A stretch of DNA of 63,834 nt, the filler included, from Globobulimina sp. (Eukaryota): assembly GCA_003354225.1 (NCBI GenBank). It is 36 parts of 36 records of this genome, joined end to end, with 100 filler letters (N's around TTAATTAATTAA, not from the genome) between each part and the next. Parts side by side here need not be neighbours in the genome. Positions count along the whole stretch, not along the records: positions 17,769 to 19,444 come from PIVH01013252.1; 35 more parts are not named here. One strand, 5' to 3'. Numbering within the stretch: the stretch's first letter is position 1; each line of letters begins with the position of its first letter. Under the pieces are notes generated by a model. The model did no database searches, had not been told where the DNA came from, and was given only the letters and a program-made list of their open reading frames with translations. Position numbers and translations under genes: made by a program. Below are positions 4,113-63,834 of this stretch, one piece after another.

Positions 4113-5231
4113 ATGCCTGGTAACTGTCATTTGTGCAAAAAAGCTGATGCAAAGGCATCTTGTGGCGGATGTAAATCAGTATTTTATTGTGATCGACAAT
4201 GCCAAGTTAAACATTGGAGTACACATAAGTTAGAATGTAAAACATTTAGATCTGCAAAAGAAGACGAAAAAAAAGAAGAAGCATTGGATATGCATGACTT
4301 CACATTTACGTTGCCGCCATTCGATGAGACATCAATCCGCATTCAACAAACAAATAATTGTGGATATGGTATGTTTGCAAACTGTGAAATTAAGAGAGGA
4401 ACAACAATCTGTAAAGAAAAAGCAATGATGGTATTACCTGAATATGCAAAACAGAAAACGACATTTTATATTAAACAGCAATTTCTATTATTATCAGAAA
4501 CGCAAAAAAATATTTATAAATCACTGTCGCGTAAATCTAACCAAAAGCAGCCATATAAGGATAATGACAACGTAACATTGTTAAATATTTTTGTAAATAA
4601 TCAAATTGTAATTAAACAGAGAAAATCATGCTGTATTTTTCCGTTAATATCGCGTGTAAACCATAGTTGTGTTAGCAATGGGCATTGGATATGGAATGAA
4701 AAAATGAACGAAGAGCGATTGATTGCTTTGAATGATATCAAGAGCGATGAAGAAATATTTGCAAATTATTGTGACGAATGGCCCAAAACCAAAGGAGAAA
4801 GAAACAAAGAATTGAAAACGAAATGGAATATTGAATGTAAATGTGAGTGGTGCTCAGATGACAGCGATATTGTAATAAACGAATATAATAAATTGGAGCA
4901 GTCATTGGAATCATTAATATCAAATCCATTGAATGGTTATAAATCGGCGCAAAAATTGGTGAAAATGGTTGAGAAACACTTTAATTCAAATGCGAATTTG
5001 CTGAATAAACATTGCTATTCGACTGCGCAGTTTGCACTGGGATTACAAAAATGGAGTGAAGCGTCATATTATTTGGAACGAGCGATAAAAGAAAAACAAA
5101 TTGCAGAAGGACTGGATATTGAAATTGACAGTGTTTTTATGGAAAAGGTGTATTTATTACCAACGAGATTTAGAAGTAGATTTAGGAAATTTGATAAAAA
5201 ATATATTAAAGAGAGAATGCACAAAAATAAT
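4113..5231 (+). CDS. MYND zinc finger + SET domain lysine methyltransferase (SMYD/SET5-like), 3' end at contig edge
   Basis: CHLC..CGGC..YC...CQVKHW..HK..C MYND; GYGMFA, RVNHSC, EEIFANY SET motifs; post-SET CKCEWC; TPR-like tail. Confidence 0.92.
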
Positions 5232-7108: not shown

Positions 7109-8785
7109 CTTTTTTGACGAATTTTTTAGCTTCCTTAAATTGTTTCATGTTAACATTATGTGAATCTTCTTCCTGTGACAATGAATCATTGTCTTTTGCC
7201 ATAAATTTGACATTTCCAGTTCCATTATTCCACATAAATACCGGTAATTGATTGGTATCACCCAATTCTTGTTGTATTTCATCAAATAATTCGCTTAACA
7301 TTTGACCTTCGCCATACTGCATCAATGATGCTTTTGTTTTTTCAACAAATTTATGGATCACAAATGAACCCCTCGTTGTCTGCATATATTTGTACATGTA
7401 CAGTATATACAAGTTATATGGGTTTCCAGCAAACCATTTTGTATAAAAAGTTATAACATACACTCATATTTGATCGAAATCCGACATTTGCTGCGTGAAT
7501 GGTGGCCAATTTATAATCGGGGTTTTTGTCACCTTTCTGCCACGATGGTTTATGTGAGGAAGCCTCCAATTGTTGCATACCATATTGTTTCCCAATCACA
7601 CTCACCACGCTGTCCACGTGTTTCCTTCTATCGTTCCCATCGCAACAATCAAACAGTACTATCCGTGGAATATTGCGCGATTCAGGATGGTCAATCGAGA
7701 ATATTCTATGAATTACATTCTTTTCAATCTTGCGATGATCGCTGGTAATAATATGGTCCTGGATGCCATGACTGGATAAAACCAAAATCAATCCATCAAA
7801 TCTGTCAATATCATCATTATACTTATCATCGCAGCTCGAAATGAGATTATATTCCAATAATTGTGCCTGTTTTTTCAACAATGCAATTAGTTCAAGCTCA
7901 GTCCAATGCGTTTTAATTTTAGTGGACTCACTGTATTGAGGATATATTTGATATCTCAATGCATCTTTGAACAAAGATAATAAATTTCTAATGTCAATAT
8001 GAACGGGTAAGTCAGTGACGAATGTATCGCCTAAAAAGTCCGACTGTTGAGGTTGCTCATCGTACTCACCAATGCCTAATAAAATAACCATGGGATTGGA
8101 CAATGGAATGATTTTATCCTTTGGTGCTTTGGCCTTTGATGTCTTACGACAACAAAAGCAAATACATACTGTGAGTATAACAAGTATTATTATGAGCGCT
8201 ACATAAAACAATGGTGTTTTAATTAGGAACAATATGCCTTCCACGAGCACTGCCATTATGTCTTTTGTGTCTCCTGTGGTTTTTGGAGGGACATCCTCTG
8301 CATTTGAGGAAACATTGGCAGTGCCGGTCTGTGTCGAATTGACTGCTTCCGTTGTATCAGAATCGTGAGCGCTTAATGTGGCAAATAAGTAGCTGGGTGC
8401 CGGCGATTGCGGTGATAATGTAGTGGCCGTGGAGTTGGTATAAGTTATATTGCTTACTTGATTCCTAATTGGTGTGTATTGAGAAGCAGCAGAATAAACT
8501 GGACAGATAGAAAAGAGTCCGCATGAATTAATATTAGTAACACCGCCAACATGTATAATAAACATCCATTCTGTGTCAGGTTGATATGTGATTGAAGCAA
8601 AAGCGTATACAGCAGTCAACATTGACTCTTTGGTACTCCATTCGTTGCGTGTGATATTATAGAAATATGCAGTACTGAATGCATCCACATATGATACCGA
8701 TGCAGCACCACCAGCTAAATAGATACCATTTGAGTTTGCATTATAAGCAAAACTACTCGTTATCGCAGCAGGTATGGCGCTGACT
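7109..8785 (-). CDS. Membrane-anchored caspase-like (peptidase C14) protein: Kelch repeats, S/T stalk, TM, p20 + p10; partial at both ends; intron 7380-7461
   Basis: IYLAGG..YNITRNEWS and IIHVGG Kelch; TM LFYVALIIILVILTVCICFCC; MVILLGIGEY, LILVLSSHG (His), PRIVLFDCCDG (Cys); GTATGT...TGCAG intron joins to TTRGSFVIHKF...LFDEIQQEL...QLP. Confidence 0.82.
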
Positions 8786-10894: not shown

Positions 10895-11839
10895 CTATGA
10901 TTTAAAAGAAAGCGATCGAATTGATATTATAATTTGAATTGTAAAATAGTTTAATTTTTTTAATTTTAAAGATTCAAATCTATTGTCACCAACAGCCCCT
11001 TTCCCTTTTGACTCCATAGTCTCGCCATCATAAAATTTAATTTCAGGAATACAAAACTCAAAACGAAAAGTAAATGAATTAATTGTTTTATGCGGATATG
11101 ATTCCAATTTTAATCCATATCTAAACCGTCCATCATCTTTTACTGTGTGTTGTTTACATAATGGATAAAATACAAATTTATTATCTTTTTTATTGGTTTC
11201 AATCAAATGTGAAATATTACATTTTATATCTTCGCCTTTGATTTGTTTCCCACTCCAAAACGATTCAAGTTGTTTTCCTTCAATTTTCCATTTAAAATGC
11301 GATACTTTCTGCAATCCAATATTTTTATTTACAAATTTCTCACTTAAAAACAACGAAAACGTACCAAATTTCATGTTTTTATCGTTTTTTTTATTTCTCT
11401 TAATCAACTTTGAAAACCCAGAAACCGATTTTTTTGTACTTTCTACCGGTGCTTTGATTAAACATTCTTGTAATTCAAGAATAAAAAACTGAAATTCTTC
11501 TTCATTGATCCAAATCGTATCAATATTATCACAAAAATGATTGAACAATGTTTGTAAATACGACGGTATCTTATAAGTATTCTCATTATTATTCTGCATA
11601 TAATTCGCCATCATATAAATCAATGTTTTCTCATATTTCACCTGAAATAATTGCTTATCGTGGCGAATAAATGAGCCATTGATAATCTTTTGAAACAATT
11701 TCAAACATTTTACATGATATTTGGTAGACGTTCCATTATAAATTATATTGTTAAAGGACCAGTTATTACACATAATTAACCTCTCTTCTTCCTTGGGGTA
11801 ATCGCTTAAAAACGACACATTCACAAAGACCGGACCGCG
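10895..11839 (-). CDS. C-terminal part of an AT-rich eukaryotic protein (ART-like SDYPKEEERL motif; MATH-like tail), fused in frame to the bacterial segment
   Basis: Strongly AT-rich codons, stop at 10895; composition differs sharply from 11840-12339. Confidence 0.6.
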   Translation of the reverse strand, partial: RGPVFVNVSFLSDYPKEEERLIMCNNWSFNNIIYNGTSTKYHVKCLKLFQKIINGSFIRHDKQLFQVKYEKTLIYMMANYMQNNNENTYKIPSYLQTLFNHFCDNIDTIWINEEEFQFFILELQECLIKAPVESTKKSVSGFSKLIKRNKKNDKNMKFGTFSLFLSEKFVNKNIGLQKVSHFKWKIEGKQLESFWSGKQIKGEDIKCNISHLIETNKKDNKFVFYPLCKQHTVKDDGRFRYGLKLESYPHKTINSFTFRFEFCIPEIKFYDGETMESKGKGAVGDNRFESLKLKKLNYFTIQIIISIRSLSFKS

Positions 11840-12339
11840 GCTATCCGCTTTGCCCAATGCAATAACGGGCAGGCCTAAAATCATCGTATTGGTGAGCGTT
11901 TTATCTTCATCAATAAACGCGCGTACTCGATAGTTTTCAGACGCTCTTAGCGCAACAGCCAATTGACGACCACCAGAACCCGCACCGTAGATCAGCACTT
12001 CTTGACGAATATCTTTTGACGTCGTCGCGACAAGATTGCGAACCACCAAACGAGAGCCGCCACATAACAAAGCTAAATAAGCACCGTAAATAATAGGCAC
12101 CGTACGAGGAACTGGTTCTTGCAGGTAATACGCAAAAAGAGCCAAAGATATTGCCGACAATATTGCGCCTGCCGTTACCACAAACAATGCTTGAAAGGTG
12201 AGATACCTAAGTACTGCGCGATAAAGCCCTAATTTAGTAAAAATAAGCACCGTCATTATTACTGTTAAGCCTGTCAGTAATAAGTTGTCCCCATCATTCA
12301 AAAATTCGAAATCGCCTAGCCTTGTCCACAACGCAATGT
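11840..12339 (-). CDS. Bacterial nucleoside-diphosphate sugar epimerase/dehydratase (CapD/PglF/WbfY-like), N-terminal membrane part, Gammaproteobacteria-like
   Basis: KLGLYRAVLRY, VPRTVPIIY, VLIYGAGSGGRQLA..FIDED..ILGLPV. Confidence 0.88.
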
Positions 12340-17768: not shown

Positions 17769-18642
17769 TTACTTTATATACTCTATACAGTTCCTCACTC
17801 CATCGTGGTAAATTAATTTTTCCAAAAGCTCCTTGTTTGTCGAGCTCTAATTTATGTACAATGTCATCCTTTTGAAATTTGGGTGGTATTGCAATATTTT
17901 TGGCGATAATTTTTCTTCGTTTGTTTAGGACTAAATGTAGTACTTCGCCCGCGTTTTCAGTGGTCACACTGTTTGGTGTTCTATTACCGATTGAGCTGTG
18001 TGGTGAGTTATTGTATATGTCAACAGCTTGCTTGACACCATTCCATCCAGAACCGCCACCGGTTACAATTCTGCCAAGTATAATTCTCAACGATCGTATC
18101 AAAGATTCTGCTAACCCAGTTTTTGAGGGGTTGTTGCCAGATGTAAAAATCTGCTTGACATTGTATTGCTTCATCTTATCACGAAATGACCTCCCCATAA
18201 ATTCAACCCCGTGATCAGAAAAAGCTGAGTGAATTTTAAATTTATAGTTTTTTATTATTTTTTCCATACCATTCGCGACATTTTTAGCAGTTAAATTACG
18301 GACTGGAACAACGGTTGCAAGTTTACTCAATGCATCGACTGCAACGAGAGCGTGCGGAAACTGTGATTTTGTTTTCTGTCCTAGAAACCAAATATCAATC
18401 GCGACCATTTGCCCCGGGTATGACACGTTAATCCATTGATTCCAAATCGATGTTCTCGGTCTCGGTACCTGTTTATGTCTGGCATATGCTGGTTGAGTAG
18501 AGAGGTAACGGTCTACATCTGATTGGTTAATTTTAGGATTCTCTCTGTGGGCTTGCAACCAAAGTTTCTTGGCAGAAGTAAAACCTGTCTCTGGATTATA
18601 GTACAATTCGGCAAGCAACTCTTTTTTCTTTTTTGTCAACAT
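17769..18642 (-). CDS. Polinton/Maverick-type retroviral-like (rve, DDE) integrase, 3' partial
   Basis: LYYNPETGFTSAKKLW N-terminus; AIDIW, VAVDALSK, SDHGVEF, LAESLIRSLR; YNNSPHSSIG; KFQKDDIV..FGK...RWSEELYRV. Confidence 0.9.
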
Positions 18643-18678
18643 GATTATTAATGATGGAATTTTGAACAGGTAAGTTAA

Positions 18679-18700
18679 CTTTACCTTATATATAGTAAAG
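18679..18700. promoter_or_regulatory. Candidate bidirectional TATA promoter
   Basis: Palindromic TATATATA (18687-18694) flanked by CTTTAC/GTAAAG inverted repeat, about 45 bp and 42 bp from the two divergent ATGs. Confidence 0.55.
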
Positions 18701-18735
18701 AACAGCGAGGTGTAAACCAATATGTAAATGAGAGC

Positions 18736-19245
18736 ATGGCGGGTGCGTGTCCCGACTCTGTTGAGTCTATTATTATGGTACGCGACTACATTGGGTATAG
18801 ATTAAAATTAGCTGGAATCGATTGGGAATACCAACCCGATTATTTGCTTCCGGGCAGAAAACATTTAATGCTGCGCGAACTGGCATATTCATTTGAATTG
18901 CAATACAAAACTCAACTAGAAGAATTAATCAACAACATGGAATTTTCGTTGAACACTATTCAAGACGAATACCAAAAAATATTAGACTTGTTGCTAGGCA
19001 AAAAGATCACATGGAAGCGAATCGTTTTAATATTTTCTATAACCGGATACTTAGCTTTAGAAAGTATAGTGAGAAATAAGCCATCGAATGTAATTATGTT
19101 CATGGATACATTGTTATCGTTGTATATCAAGAGAGAATTGATTTATTGGGTAATAGAAAATGGTAATTGGGAACATGGGTTAGAAAAATGTTTGCGCCAA
19201 TATTTGAAATCAAATCAGCGGAACAATTGCTGTATCATCATTTAA
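18736..19245 (+). CDS. Bcl-2-family homologue with C-terminal CaaX motif (complete, 169 aa)
   Basis: BH4-like MVRDYIGYRLKLAGIDW; BH3-like LMLRELAYSFELQY; BH1-like LLGKKITWKRIVLIFSITG; BH2-like WVIENGNWE; ends CCIII*. Confidence 0.85.
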   Translation: MAGACPDSVESIIMVRDYIGYRLKLAGIDWEYQPDYLLPGRKHLMLRELAYSFELQYKTQLEELINNMEFSLNTIQDEYQKILDLLLGKKITWKRIVLIFSITGYLALESIVRNKPSNVIMFMDTLLSLYIKRELIYWVIENGNWEHGLEKCLRQYLKSNQRNNCCIII

Positions 19246-19248
19246 ATT

Positions 19249-19444
19249 TTACATAAAATATTTTAACAATTTTCGAAAATTTCGTCTGTCTTCTCTACTT
19301 CTGAGCTCAATGATTGTTTTATCATAGATATTATCAGCTTCGAAAGCTCTTATTTCATATGAATCTTGTTTCTCCAGTTCGTCATATCCCATACACTGTA
19401 CTTCAATTTGATATCCAGACTCGGTTTTACCAACAATCATAGTA
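19249..19444 (-). CDS. C-terminal fragment of an unknown protein, convergent with the Bcl-2 gene
   Basis: Frame open from contig end; stop lies 3 bp from the Bcl-2 stop. Confidence 0.5.
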
Positions 19445-25026: not shown

Positions 25027-26430
25027 ATGGCTCACTTTGACGTCGATATGAACGAAAGAATCATCAATGAAGAATACAAAGTTTTGTTGTCCGCAATGAT
25101 ATCTTATCTACCAATTCTTTTGTAATCGGTAAACAACATAAAACTCCTAATTCAACTTTGCTCCTTGCACTTACAATTACAAAATAAACAGTTATGGAAA
25201 AAAAACTCACCGTTTTTATACGATATAATATTATCCTCCACATTAGAATGGCCCTCATTGACCGTGGAATGGCTACCAGACAAAAAATTAGTTACCGACT
25301 CCAACGATATCGACTATTCCATCCAACGGCTAATACTCTCCACACACACAAACGGCACCGAACAGGATTACTTACTCATCGCTCAAATAAAATTACCAAC
25401 CATCGACCCCAAGAAACTAAGTGAAAAATACAAGCATTCGTGCGATGTGTACGGTGGTTTTGGCGGCGCCGCCGGCAAATTTGAAATCATTCAAAAAATA
25501 CCGCATAACGGCGAAGCAAACCGTGCGCGATATATGCCACACAACGCCAACGTCATAGCGACAAAGACTGATATCGGACATGTCAACGTTTTCGACCGTA
25601 GAAAATACACAAATAAGCCCTCAAAAAACAGTACGTGTAAACCGACATTGACATTGCGAGGACATGCAAAGGGCGAAGGATATGGTTTGGAATGGAACAA
25701 ATATCGCGAAGGTTATTTATTGTCCTCTTCTGACGATGGAACGATATGTTTATGGGACATCAAACAAACGACCAGCGACACACTGCATATATTTAAGCCG
25801 CACAACAATAACAACAATGGGAAGACCAATGGCATTGAGGACATTTCATGGCATCAACGCGGGAATGGCTGCGGTGACATATTTGCGTCGGTGGGCGATG
25901 ACAAATGCATAAGTTTATGGGATTTGCGCAATGGAAACGCAAATAATATGAAACCGATTGGGATTAAAAAAAATGCACATAAATCCGGCATAAATTGTGT
26001 GGAGTTTTCGCCGTTTAATGAACATTTGTTGATAACGGGCGGCGGAGATAACAGTGTTTGTTTGTGGGATAAGCGTAATTTGGATAAGAAGTTGCATTCA
26101 TTGGAAGGACATTCGGATGAAATTTTCAGGGTTTCGTGGAGTCCGCATAGCGAAGTACATTTAGCGAGTTCGTCGGCGGATCGTCGCGTTATGATTTGGG
26201 ATTTGTCGCAGATTGGACACGAACAGGCCTCGGATGAAGCGGAGGATGGTCCGCCGGAATTGATGTTCATTCACGGCGGGCATAGAGGCGGAGTGACGGA
26301 TTTTTCATGGAATAAAAACGATCCTTGGGTCATTGTGAGCATTGCGGCAAACAATGTTATGCAATGTTGGCAAATGACTGATGAGTTACTTACTTTTGAT
26401 GATTGTTCTGCGCATGTTCAGTTAGAATAA
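25027..26430 (+). CDS. RBBP4: Histone-binding WD40 protein RBBP4/RBBP7/MSI1 (CAF-1 small subunit); intron 25081-25191
   Basis: ERIINEEYK|LWKKNSPFLYD..LEWPSLTVEWLP; NRARYMP; WD repeats; EDGPPELMFIHGGH. Confidence 0.96.
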
Positions 26431-40904: not shown

Positions 40905-42206
40905 CTAGCTAGGTAGTAGCACTACTAATACTGGCAAGGATAGTATGTAATCCATAGTAATCGTTTTTGGATTACAATTCTTATTATTGCTCCATTCAAA
41001 ACTATTCAAAACCGGTTTCCCTGCTTCCACATCGGGGAAAATATCATCTTGGAACACATCACCACCACGTTTTCGTGGTACAATAATTGAAATAGGTTCA
41101 ATTGCATCCCGTGTTAATTTTAAAAATCGATTTATTTCACATTTCCAAACATCGCATGCTCGTTTTGGTATAAAACATCCACCTCTTTGAGGGTTCACAC
41201 TTCTGTACATACCCAAATGATAACAAATTCTCGCATCATTAATAAGTTCATACCATGACAAAGTGCCATCACCTTTGCCGAAACTATACAATAAACCAAG
41301 CTCGTTATCATAATATGGCACAATAATTGAAGCAGACTGATCAATGTCTTTTGAATATATTGGTTTGGATAAATTCTTCAAATCCCACATTTTAAGTTGC
41401 CGTTTGGCTGTTTTACTAAACCCAAAACTACCAATCCATCCCATATTATTCACCCAAAATACATTGGAAGCCTTAGCAGCTCCAAAGGCAAACTGCGAAG
41501 TGGCTTCATTCAATTGTCTCGGATCAAATATTCGAATGTGTTTATCCTTTCCAGTCATTGCTAACTGAGAACCATCGACATTCCATTCCATTGACCATAT
41601 TTGACATTTTGTATCTAATTTGTTTGATTTTGTTTGTTGGAAACTCATCAATGTATAATCGATATATATACCTTTGAATGTCATTATATTTTGAGCTAAC
41701 TCAATGTTCCATATTTTAATGGTTTTATCAAACGAAGATGTGGCTAATATTGAGTTTGAACATGGATTAAATTTGCATTGATTGATTTTCTTTGAATGTC
41801 CAATCATTACAATATCAGCGTTGGTAATATTGTTTCTTAAACCATCGATTGGGAATGTTGTTATTGCCACAGTGCAATCTTCAGAAACTGTGGCAATCAT
41901 ATTTGTGATAAATGGATGAAAATCATGATCTAATGTTTTACCTTTGTGTACACATAGTAATGGCTGATTTGATGGTATTTGGTGTGGTTTATCAAGTACT
42001 AAAATATAAACTGGACCACCTGCAGCAACTTTTGATACAGCAATAAATTTATCATTGGCAGATACATAATTTGATTGTCCTGTAGTTAGTGGTCTCTTTA
42101 TGTCACGAAACCATTTGTCTGCCCTTTGACGATCCCCATAAACATGTCTAAATTTGCGTGATCTTTTACCTGCTGCTGCCATTTGACCTAATGTGGTTAT
42201 GGACAT
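40905..42206 (-). CDS. Coronin (WD40 actin regulator); C-terminal coiled coil replaced by simple-repeat sequence
   Basis: SRKFRHVYG, HKGKTLDHDFHPF..ATVSEDCT, GKGDGT..YE, PQRGGCFIPKR..DV..CEINRF, IVPRK..DVFQDDIFP. Confidence 0.95.
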   Translation of the reverse strand: MSITTLGQMAAAGKRSRKFRHVYGDRQRADKWFRDIKRPLTTGQSNYVSANDKFIAVSKVAAGGPVYILVLDKPHQIPSNQPLLCVHKGKTLDHDFHPFITNMIATVSEDCTVAITTFPIDGLRNNITNADIVMIGHSKKINQCKFNPCSNSILATSSFDKTIKIWNIELAQNIMTFKGIYIDYTLMSFQQTKSNKLDTKCQIWSMEWNVDGSQLAMTGKDKHIRIFDPRQLNEATSQFAFGAAKASNVFWVNNMGWIGSFGFSKTAKRQLKMWDLKNLSKPIYSKDIDQSASIIVPYYDNELGLLYSFGKGDGTLSWYELINDARICYHLGMYRSVNPQRGGCFIPKRACDVWKCEINRFLKLTRDAIEPISIIVPRKRGGDVFQDDIFPDVEAGKPVLNSFEWSNNKNCNPKTITMDYILSLPVLVVLLPS

Positions 42207-42632
42207 GATTTAGTGTCTCAGTTTATTTTCTGGTGCGTAAAACTGTGTCCAAAACAAAACTTGTGTTGTTTCAGACACACTTTTTGCAAAACATAAGATT
42301 TAAACAAATTGAAATTAAGGATACCTAGAAATGGGACCACTAAGCTCCTTACGGATGCGCATATAAGAACCCCTAACCTAAACGATGAGTTTTTTAGAAA
42401 GTTATTACTTTCCCTGTAGAATGGTTCGAAAGGATTTCGTTCCAGTTTTTTTAGAATGGTGATAATGGAGCCACCATCTTCCAGCACTGCAAGGATATTC
42501 TAAAATCAAATCCTTTTTAACCAATCTACAGGNNNNNNNNNNNNNNNNNNNNNNNNNNNNNNNNNNNNNNNNNNNNTTAATTAATTAANNNNNNNNNNNN
42601 NNNNNNNNNNNNNNNNNNNNNNNNNNNNNNNN

Positions 42633-62159: not shown

Positions 62160-63834
62160 AAAAAATGCAGGATAAACGGGATAAATGCCCAACTCAATTA
62201 TCTGGCGGCCAAAAACGTAAACTCTCACTAGGAATAGCATTAATTGGTGGCAGTAAAATCGTATTCCTCGATGTTAAGTAAAACGTACCTATGTGCATGG
62301 AATGAGTTTAAAATGCTTTTACAATTACTTAGGAACCTACGACCGGGTACTTACTATCTCGCCGATGGATAATGAAAATCTAAAATATAATCGTAAACTA
62401 CTTAGGATGGATCCGCACAGTCGCCGCGATGCATGGGAATTAATTAAAAAATCGTCCAAAGGAAGGACCATTGTGTTAACGACACATTACATGGATGAAG
62501 CAGATATATTAAGTGATCGAATCGCAATAATGGCCAAAGGTAAAATTGTGTGTTGTGGTTCTTCCTTATTTTTAAAGCGATTGTATGGCGTCGGATATTC
62601 ATTCACCATATCCGTCAATACTGATATTGCAATAAAAGATGTTTCTGAACATATTAATGACTTAATAGTGAAGACAATTGATACCGCACAATTACTAAGT
62701 AATTACGGATCTGAATTAATTTACAGATTACCATTCGATTCAAGTAAATCTTTTCCATCCATGTTCAGATTGATTGACAATCAAAAAGATCGTTTACATA
62801 TTGATTCATATGGCATTTCCGTAACAGTTTAGTCTTTTGTATTTGTGATACTTTTAGATCTTAAACAAAAAATACTATCGTACGCATGATGTAGACCTTA
62901 GAAGAAGTTTTTATTAAAGTTGGTCATGGTTCGGGTGCTGGTTCACAAGACAAAATGGCAGAGTCTGTCGCAGAACAAAATGACTTTAAAGGTGTGTTAA
63001 GAAGGAGGAGTATGTCGAGTGTAACTGCAGCGCTTGCGGCTGAAATCGAACTGGGTGATTCTGAAACGAAATTAGGTGAACAATATGCACGAGAAAGTAC
63101 TAAAAGAGCTTCAGTCCATATGGAAGCAATTCGTATTCGATCGCAAAAGAATTTATTCTTTGTGCATGTTCGTGCCATGTTGACTAAGAAATGGAAGTAT
63201 AGCAAACGGGATAAGCGGGCTGTATTATGTCAAATGGTATTGCCTATTCTATTTATGGTGTTTTCGTTTGCTTTGATTGACTTGGAACCGCCGCTACATT
63301 ATCCACGGTTGAAATTAGATATGACACAATTTGCAATTGCAGAAAATAGTGTGCATGAAATACCCTTCAATTCGCAATCGGTATCTTCGGTAAATCCATT
63401 CCCCGCAATTTGGGAGAATATTAATGGTACTCTGCTTCCATTAGATGGTGGTGATAATGGTAAAGCGTATGAATATGATGTACTTGCTCAACAATCCATG
63501 CATACATATTTTGATTCCATGTTAGCAATTTCTGATGAAAAACCATTTAAATATATTTCTTATTATTTTCCAATTCACGAAACAAATATCTCCACTTTGC
63601 AGCATATCGGAATTAATGGTCAGTTTAATATCGATCCACGGCGTCATATTGGAATTGGTGCCAATGTGTCGGCCTATCATTCATTGCCTATTTCAATCAA
63701 TATTGCATCCAATTTAGCATTGAAAAAAATTAAAAATGATGCTTCGATCAATGCATATATTCAGCCATTACCAACCACAAAACAACAAACAGAGCAGTCG
63801 AAAATAGTCGAATCCTTTATTTTCTCCGACTTTT
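62160..63834 (+). CDS. ABCA-subfamily transporter, internal fragment; introns 62273-62332, 62347-62405, 62827-62894
   Basis: [77 protein letters not shown]. Confidence 0.95.

Follow-up and report, generated by a model that had tools for sequence, protein, structure and literature searches.

Introduction

Polintons are defined by a protein-primed DNA polymerase B (pPolB) together with a retrovirus-like integrase (PMC5499653), and in adintoviruses homologues of Bcl2 and IAP have been observed as well (Starrett et al. 2021, PMC8502044), with the adintovirus virion and accessory genes reported from animals only. Apart from viruses, the Bcl-2 family is described as uniquely metazoan, being absent from one choanoflagellate and one filasterean, its origin is held to be obscure, with horizontal transfer to animals as one proposal, and the transmembrane anchor is termed crucial for its proteins (PMC8998228). 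Among viral homologues, A179L of African swine fever virus (ASFV) has a CaaX-type end, and in yeast, in a reporter system, this end was farnesylated by the human farnesyltransferase (bioRxiv 10.1101/2023.09.19.558494). Here we examine a contig of 1676 bp, PIVH01013252.1, which forms positions 17769-19444 of a 63,834-base stretch of DNA (the window) from the Globobulimina sp. assembly GCA_003354225.1, and in which an integrase gene stands head-to-head with a gene of the Bcl-2 family. An earlier note on this DNA, made from the sequence alone, had proposed that the contig derives from an integrating DNA virus or transposon carrying a modulator of host cell death, and had stated that Bcl-2 accessory genes have been reported in some adintoviruses, which the adintovirus paper confirms. 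Our analysis indicates that the contig is probably a fragment of a multicopy, integrated element of the Polinton/Maverick class (adintovirus-like), which has captured a pro-survival-type, likely prenylated Bcl-2 gene.

Results

Three genes on one contig

The window consists of 36 unrelated contigs of 1675-1677 bp each, ordered from 1677 bp down to 1675 bp and joined by spacers of N44, a 12-nt linker with stops in all frames and a further N44, therefore the adjacency of two parts in the window says nothing of their genomic surroundings. Positions 17769-19444 correspond to exactly one whole contig, both ends of which fall within genes, and host DNA is reached by neither flank. The features are:

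17770..18642, minus strand: rve (DDE) integrase gene, identified from Pfam, its relatives and the catalytic triad, 3' end cut by the contig end
18643..18735, no strand: AT-rich spacer of 93 bp between diverging starts, from the sequence
18736..19245, plus strand: Bcl-2 family gene, 169 aa, identified from PF00452, the match to Bcl-xL, an AlphaFold2 (AF2) model and Foldseek
19249..19443, minus strand: ORF3, last 64 codons and stop, converging on the Bcl-2 gene, identified from its relatives and alignment A3

All three open-reading frames of the earlier note (an integrase, a complete 169-aa Bcl-2 frame and a third frame, here ORF3) are present as it had described them, and the gaps it gave as 93 bp and 3 bp fall at 18643-18735 and 19246-19248, the second separating the converging stop codons of Bcl-2 and ORF3. 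The three-gene observation is real and lies well beyond chance. Within the spacer, a TATA-like run precedes the Bcl-2 ATG by ~40 bp. The only repeats on the contig are two inverted pairs, both weak; terminal and direct repeats were not seen, no Rfam family was found over the window, and no RNA dataset was listed as containing the contig.

The 169-aa protein is a member of the Bcl-2 family

The protein encoded at 18736-19245 is a true Bcl-2 family member. It matched the whole of PF00452 (profile positions 1-100 of 100, E-value 4.6e-12, score 46.8 bits, cut-off 31.4), and its best solved relative was human Bcl-xL (E 1e-12), aligned over residues 14-149 with the N-terminal BH4 helix included; the residue-by-residue alignment to Bcl-xL confirmed the BH4-BH3-BH1-BH2 order read in the earlier note. 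A model built with AF2 from five close sequences was unusable (predicted local distance difference test score, pLDDT, 46.8), and the model used hereafter was built from an 80-row alignment obtained by exhaustive search, giving seven helices with a pLDDT of 89.3 and a predicted template-modelling score (pTM) of 0.85. When this model was compared to the PDB with Foldseek, 323 of the best 500 matches had E ≤ 0.001 and the top ones were all Bcl-xL/Bcl-2, with template-modelling scores of 0.73-0.81 over the query (TMq) and 0.82-0.92 over the target (TMt), for example 6qgk (TMq 0.81, TMt 0.92, root-mean-square deviation 2.0), and the Bcl-2 fold that the earlier note had supposed is thus borne out by the predicted structure as well as by PF00452. 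Among viral predicted structures (BFVD) only two matches had E ≤ 0.001, the best of them at 3.4e-4, the ASFV homologue A179L ranked fifth (E 6e-3) and the Bcl2 of a lancelet adintovirus ranked 42nd (E 0.47, TMq 0.45). As the cellular fold matches far exceed the viral ones, the protein has the look of a cellular pro-survival-type Bcl-2 that was copied fairly recently, and not of an old viral lineage.

In the 80-row alignment, W93, R95, W138 and W145 are conserved. The BH1 segment reads W-K-R: position 94 is lysine in 4 of the 80 rows, all from the protein's own family, versus glycine in 59 of the 80, and the sister subfamilies retain the glycine. In the BH3 segment, A-Y stands where a Gly-Asp pair is usual. 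In mutagenesis of human Bcl-2 the BH1 glycine was needed for partner binding.

A clade of Bcl-2 proteins with CaaX-type tails

The C-terminus of the protein is without a hydrophobic transmembrane tail: the final 25 residues are polar, finishing on Cys-Cys followed by three Ile, which is CaaX-like, and the hydropathy of the tail is ~0 in three full-length relatives versus ~2 or more in tail-anchored matches. Judged from these residues, a CaaX-type prenylation signal, flanked by another cysteine, appears to have taken the place of the transmembrane anchor. A HMMER search of 1.84 billion cluster representatives returned 168 matches at E ≤ 1e-3 and three at E ≤ 1e-30, these three all belonging to the protein's own family, and the next match, P0030, shares 33% identity. 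The named relatives are animal proteins with 24-30% identity, from a bivalve, Trichinella, Trichuris, a nemertean and Plectus.

A quick maximum-likelihood tree, with 85 rows, places the window protein together with P0001-P0003 (SH-aLRT 99), the P0030 cluster joins next (83) and then P0045, and the resulting clade of eight rows has a support of 96. All eight rows end C-x-x-x, most other matches end hydrophobic, and the CaaX tail is a trait of the whole clade. A cysteine at position -4 was found in 9 of 151 matched Bcl-2 sequences, the window's own left aside; five of the nine are in the CaaX clade, one is P0167, and three fit chance. The sister subfamilies P0030/P0177-P0179 and P0045 have CaaX-type boxes and fall in a supported clade with the window protein. 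A CaaX-type end preceded by a basic stretch was also seen in P0167, on a JGI contig of 6253 bp. Two short Bcl-2-like clusters of 147-149 aa, P0034 and P0037, end just past BH2 and are tailless; their 43 and 62 members come from metagenome assemblies of JGI, ENA and Logan, some on contigs of 260-800 kb. No description of this CaaX-tailed Bcl-2 clade was found in a literature search, in which, among the papers listed, the ASFV case was the only CaaX-ended Bcl-2 homologue indicated, as far as the titles and the openings of the abstracts of the others go.

The integrase and the class of the element

The integrase gene begins at an ATG at 18642 on the minus strand and stays open to the contig end at 17770, giving 291 codons; complete relatives have 327-335 aa, therefore ~40 codons are missing from the contig. 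The protein matched Pfam rve (PF00665, E 6.7e-10, score 39.6 bits, cut-off 32.6), and 13 of 735 candidates in a collection of 5.8 billion proteins are relatives, with 56-86% identity. D83, D143 and E179 are invariant in a nine-row alignment (A2), with 35 residues between D143 and E179, and the catalytic core reads as a DD35E pattern.

When metagenome contigs were scanned with the integrase alignment, a single public contig of 6787 bp, L001, came up. Its integrase is 71% identical and diverges, across a gap of 716 bp, from a PolB open-reading frame of 1376 aa, which matched PF03175, the organellar and viral type B DNA polymerases (E 1.1e-8, above the cut-off), and a PHROG DNA polymerase (E 1.7e-10). 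With an integrase of 71% identity standing beside a pPolB gene, the Polinton/Maverick class is the best reading of the window contig. No capsid, ATPase or protease was seen on L001 and two of its open-reading frames have no Pfam or PHROG family, the record being too short to decide on these genes. Its PolB has no solved relative by sequence and no OTU domain in Pfam, and the stretch compared to the PDB for an OTU domain gave only summed, sub-threshold matches to TAL repeats, an artefact. The gap between PolB and integrase on L001 also holds a 102-aa open-reading frame without a family and, at 4757-4910, a GC-rich palindrome with self-complementary stretches of 45 and 99 nt (GC 0.51 versus ~0.38). 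The other 35 contigs of the window, searched with the L001 proteins only, showed no PolB, capsid, ATPase or protease, and the prokaryote genome collection held no relative in searches with the integrase and Bcl-2 alignments (A2 and A1).

Several observations weigh against an adintovirus-like Polinton with a working pro-survival gene. L001 and the window contig share the integrase gene only (69% over 860 nt) and L001 has neither Bcl-2 nor ORF3, so the link to PolB is indirect, as modules can swap between elements. The window contig has no PolB, capsid, packaging ATPase or protease, though at 1676 bp it is too short for the last three to be expected, and IMG/VR returned no relative to queries with the integrase (alone and as alignment A2), Bcl-2 (A1), the L001 PolB and ORF3 (A3). 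The fold model is far nearer to cellular Bcl-2 than to any viral one. The change from glycine to lysine in BH1 suggests that the binding groove may work differently or have an altered specificity. Lastly, selection on the cargo may be slight: in a sample of 38 coding differences, taken among the best-supported 40 of 237, synonymous to non-synonymous changes numbered 12:9 in the integrase and 6:11 in Bcl-2, where ~20% synonymous is expected by chance, which suggests that the integrase is constrained and that constraint on Bcl-2 is weak at best.

These points leave some room for an element of another rve-bearing class, such as a polinton-like virus or virophage-type element devoid of pPolB, or a Ginger-type transposon, with Bcl-2 and ORF3 as its cargo. 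Such an element would be in keeping with a contig that has no PolB or capsid and with a relative, L001, that shares the integrase module only; the nearest solved integrases, Ty3 (E 3e-4) and retroviral cores (to 0.01), do not separate the classes either, and a language-model search, which provides a lead only, placed nearest the Atlas clusters of rve proteins of 268-313 aa, whose few taxon-labelled members are from viruses, Parabasalia and Arthropoda. However, an integrase 71% identical to that of the contig lies 716 bp from a pPolB gene, and the contig showed neither a reverse transcriptase nor LTRs nor a further transposase domain, which makes another class distinctly unlikely.

ORF3

ORF3 comprises 64 codons plus the stop and is open at the contig end, its relatives (6 of 69 candidates, with 75-80% identity) being 120-132 aa in length and the whole protein accordingly ~124 aa. 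No family scored above cut-off in Pfam or PHROGs. A match to the SOUL heme-binding family was rejected, as it scored 18.5 bits (cut-off 27) and placed positions 1-51 of the 173-position profile on the C-terminal end of the protein, which is positionally impossible. From its conservation among these relatives, ORF3 appears to be a conserved companion protein.

Copy number and linkage

Logan contigs were aligned to the window contig from two sequencing runs of different studies, X1, which is labelled with a single organism, and X2, a marine metagenome. In X1, 71 contigs align, 21 of them with at least 99% identity, 21 with 95-99%, 18 with 90-95% and 11 with <90%, and these cover all 30 of the 30 depth bins, with a summed depth per bin of 25-73 over the integrase, 22-87 over Bcl-2 and 46-75 over ORF3. 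Five contigs align in X2, with identities from <90% to 99%. Two further runs from the sample of X1 (X3 and X4) contained almost no words of the contig and no contigs that aligned, which is no proof of absence, and they are not used as evidence.

With at least 31 letters on either side of the junction, the spacer between integrase and Bcl-2 is bridged by a near-identical X1 contig spanning 18610-18811 and, in the marine metagenome X2, by a contig spanning 18528-18791, whilst a diverged X1 contig spans both genes with 70 letters of the spacer replaced and the coding flanks kept. The junction between Bcl-2 and ORF3 is bridged by three diverged X1 records, and several diverged X1 copies continue into unlike sequence. 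Two Bcl-2 copies, P0001 and P0002, have full frames of 167 aa that are 74-75% identical, with the BH segments and the tail all kept, and a third, P0003, has a different N-terminus. The relatives P0005, P0007, P0008 and P0021 are encoded on contigs of 3.5-5.7 kb. The aligned contigs depict a multicopy family that is ageing within a genome and whose repeated unit comprises integrase, Bcl-2 and ORF3.

These copies bear on a simpler explanation, in which Bcl-2 and ORF3 are ordinary host genes and an inserted or domesticated integrase merely lies adjacent. The protein does resemble a cellular gene in that both the model and the sequence are nearest to cellular Bcl-2/Bcl-xL and not to viral homologues, and the further CaaX-tailed subfamilies at ~33% identity (the P0030 cluster and P0045) resemble a cellular gene family. 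Yet in X1, Bcl-2 and ORF3 equal the integrase in both repetition and divergence (Bcl-2 depth 22-87 versus 25-73), and the equal repetition of all three genes argues against a lone cellular gene beside a stray integrase; as diverged copies and a second study alike preserve the junctions, we regard this explanation as improbable. A chimera of unrelated genes made in assembly or amplification, which the bacterial contigs and the joined open-reading frame at 10898-12337 show might occur in this assembly, is excluded for practical purposes, since contigs from X1 and from the marine metagenome bridge integrase and Bcl-2, X1 contigs bridge Bcl-2 and ORF3, and diverged copies exist, so that the linkage does not hang on one chimeric read, the outcome that the earlier note had named as fatal to it.

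The host and the rest of the window

Most of the remaining contigs are AT-rich (GC 0.29-0.43), and they bear long, uninterrupted open-reading frames for ordinary eukaryotic proteins, including RbAp48 (434 aa, at 25126-26427), coronin (434 aa, at 40908-42209), GT64 (441 aa), SET-MYND, a P-type ATPase and a caspase-domain protein, and most of the genes are uninterrupted over 300-590 codons. A GT-AG intron of ~68 nt, read by eye, lies at 62827-62894 between two long exons of an ABCA-like gene. Compared to human RBBP4, fly p55 and fission-yeast Mis16, the RbAp48 of the window scored 435, 451 and 349 bits, respectively; animal-to-animal scores of this protein lie well above those of the window, so the genome dominating the window is probably not that of a typical animal. 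Coronin was uninformative on the host, its Atlas search matching chordate-biased clusters.

The caspase-domain protein is a 456-aa protein at 7417-8784 on the minus strand, with a C-terminal Peptidase_C14 domain (E 8.1e-6, above the cut-off) and a central hydrophobic segment seen by eye, and it matched solved caspases only marginally (E 0.15); this caspase-fold protein may matter if the Bcl-2 element shares its cell. Bacterial-type sequence is present too: the Plug domain of a bacterial TonB-dependent receptor at 1087-1677 on the minus strand (E 1.2e-5), and, in a 480-aa open-reading frame at 10898-12337 on the minus strand, a first 150 residues of bacterial-type CoA_binding_3 (E 3.7e-6) followed by unrelated AT-rich coding sequence, a contig which looks likely to be chimeric. 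Bacterial DNA and a likely chimeric frame indicate that co-sampled material is present in the assembly.

Composition does not discriminate between hosts. The integrase/Bcl-2 contig (GC 0.362, trinucleotide distance 0.022) is typical of the 36, which is weak evidence of host, and its codon usage correlates with that of 23 long window open-reading frames at r 0.61, compared to a leave-one-out mean of 0.67 (sd 0.13) for the frames themselves, but the unrelated L001 PolB fits the same frames equally well (r 0.68). The prior favours an animal source, since Bcl-2 is otherwise metazoan and the adintovirus accessory genes come from animals only. Against this prior, none of the three genes has a close relative with a name, in searches that included annotated animal genomes, which suggests a marine lineage that is under-sampled. 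As host, a co-sampled animal (or another eukaryote) has a little under an even chance and the AT-rich, intron-poor genome which dominates the window only slightly less; a free virus is unlikely. It is possible, if rather doubtful, that the element is endogenous in an AT-rich, intron-poor eukaryote that is not animal-like, and that the CaaX-tailed Bcl-2 and its two sister subfamilies, met solely in environmental contigs, form a Polinton-borne Bcl-2 lineage outside animals.

Discussion

Of the proposal that an integrating DNA element carries Bcl-2, a real homologue, the linkage of the genes and a pPolB, by way of a relative with 71% integrase identity, have stood up. How the element might operate can be sketched as follows. 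The DDE integrase (D83, D143, E179) would insert the linear element into host chromosomes, and the AT-rich spacer of 93 bp could act as a two-way promoter serving both the integrase and Bcl-2. Most likely, Bcl-2 would then be prenylated at the CaaX cysteine, with the neighbouring cysteine perhaps acylated, and the lipid anchor would take the protein to the cytosolic face of mitochondrial or endoplasmic reticulum membranes. There it would presumably restrain pro-death partners and so keep the cell alive during expression or replication of the element.

The locus presents a well-folded Bcl-2 protein on what is probably a multicopy integrating element, in a clade for which the search of 1.84 billion cluster representatives gave no close relative with a name. 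Should the host prove to be an animal, a distinct, lipid-anchored variant would be added to the Bcl2 cargo of the adintovirus type. Should it be the protist-like genome of the assembly, Bcl-2 would for the first time be known from outside animals and their viruses, together with an obvious vector. A Bcl-2 lineage outside animals, if true, would make Polinton elements a vehicle that moves Bcl-2 genes between eukaryotic lineages, and would bear on the proposal that the first animal Bcl-2 was acquired by horizontal transfer. Whichever the host, the exchange of the transmembrane anchor for a CaaX tail and the change of glycine to lysine in BH1 raise testable questions on the membrane targeting and partner binding of Bcl-2 proteins.

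Comparison with known systems

Adintoviruses resemble the locus in gene content, being pPolB-bearing, polinton-like elements that likewise have an rve integrase and an accessory, anti-apoptotic Bcl2 (PMC8502044), and the PolB of L001 matches the same family, pfam03175, as that of the Alpha type in that paper. They differ in that they carry adenovirus-like virion genes and adenain, none of which was seen on this contig of 1676 bp, the PolB of L001 shows no OTU domain, and the lancelet adintovirus Bcl2 has no specific likeness to the protein described here (rank 42, E 0.47). With the Polinton/Maverick elements of protists and animals, the locus shares a stand-alone DD35E integrase of ~330 aa, a multicopy and diverged family and, beside a close relative of the integrase, a pPolB gene; their capsid, ATPase, protease, terminal inverted repeats and target-site duplication were not observed on the contig. 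In a literature search, no Polinton with Bcl-2 cargo was met besides those of the adintovirus paper.

The protein itself compares best with cellular Bcl-xL and Bcl-2, which provide the best sequence and fold matches and have the same BH4-BH3-BH1-BH2 order, but it shares only 24-31% identity with them and has neither the long loop nor the transmembrane tail. A179L of ASFV, a viral Bcl-2 homologue, likewise has a CaaX-type end and is present among the fold matches, however, it is distant (17% identity over aligned columns), and its source is a large nucleocytoplasmic virus infecting pigs and not an integrating element. Another mobile element with a BCL-2 domain is Burro, a giant Gypsy-like LTR retrotransposon of planarians, in which the domain lies inside a polyprotein of 5,140 aa encoded by a retroelement (PMC6431247), whereas here it forms a separate gene of 169 aa. 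Mobile elements carrying Bcl-2 are thus of a kind already known; what is new here is the CaaX-tailed clade, the replacement of the BH1 glycine by lysine, the head-to-head arrangement with an integrase gene, and a host that is possibly not an animal.

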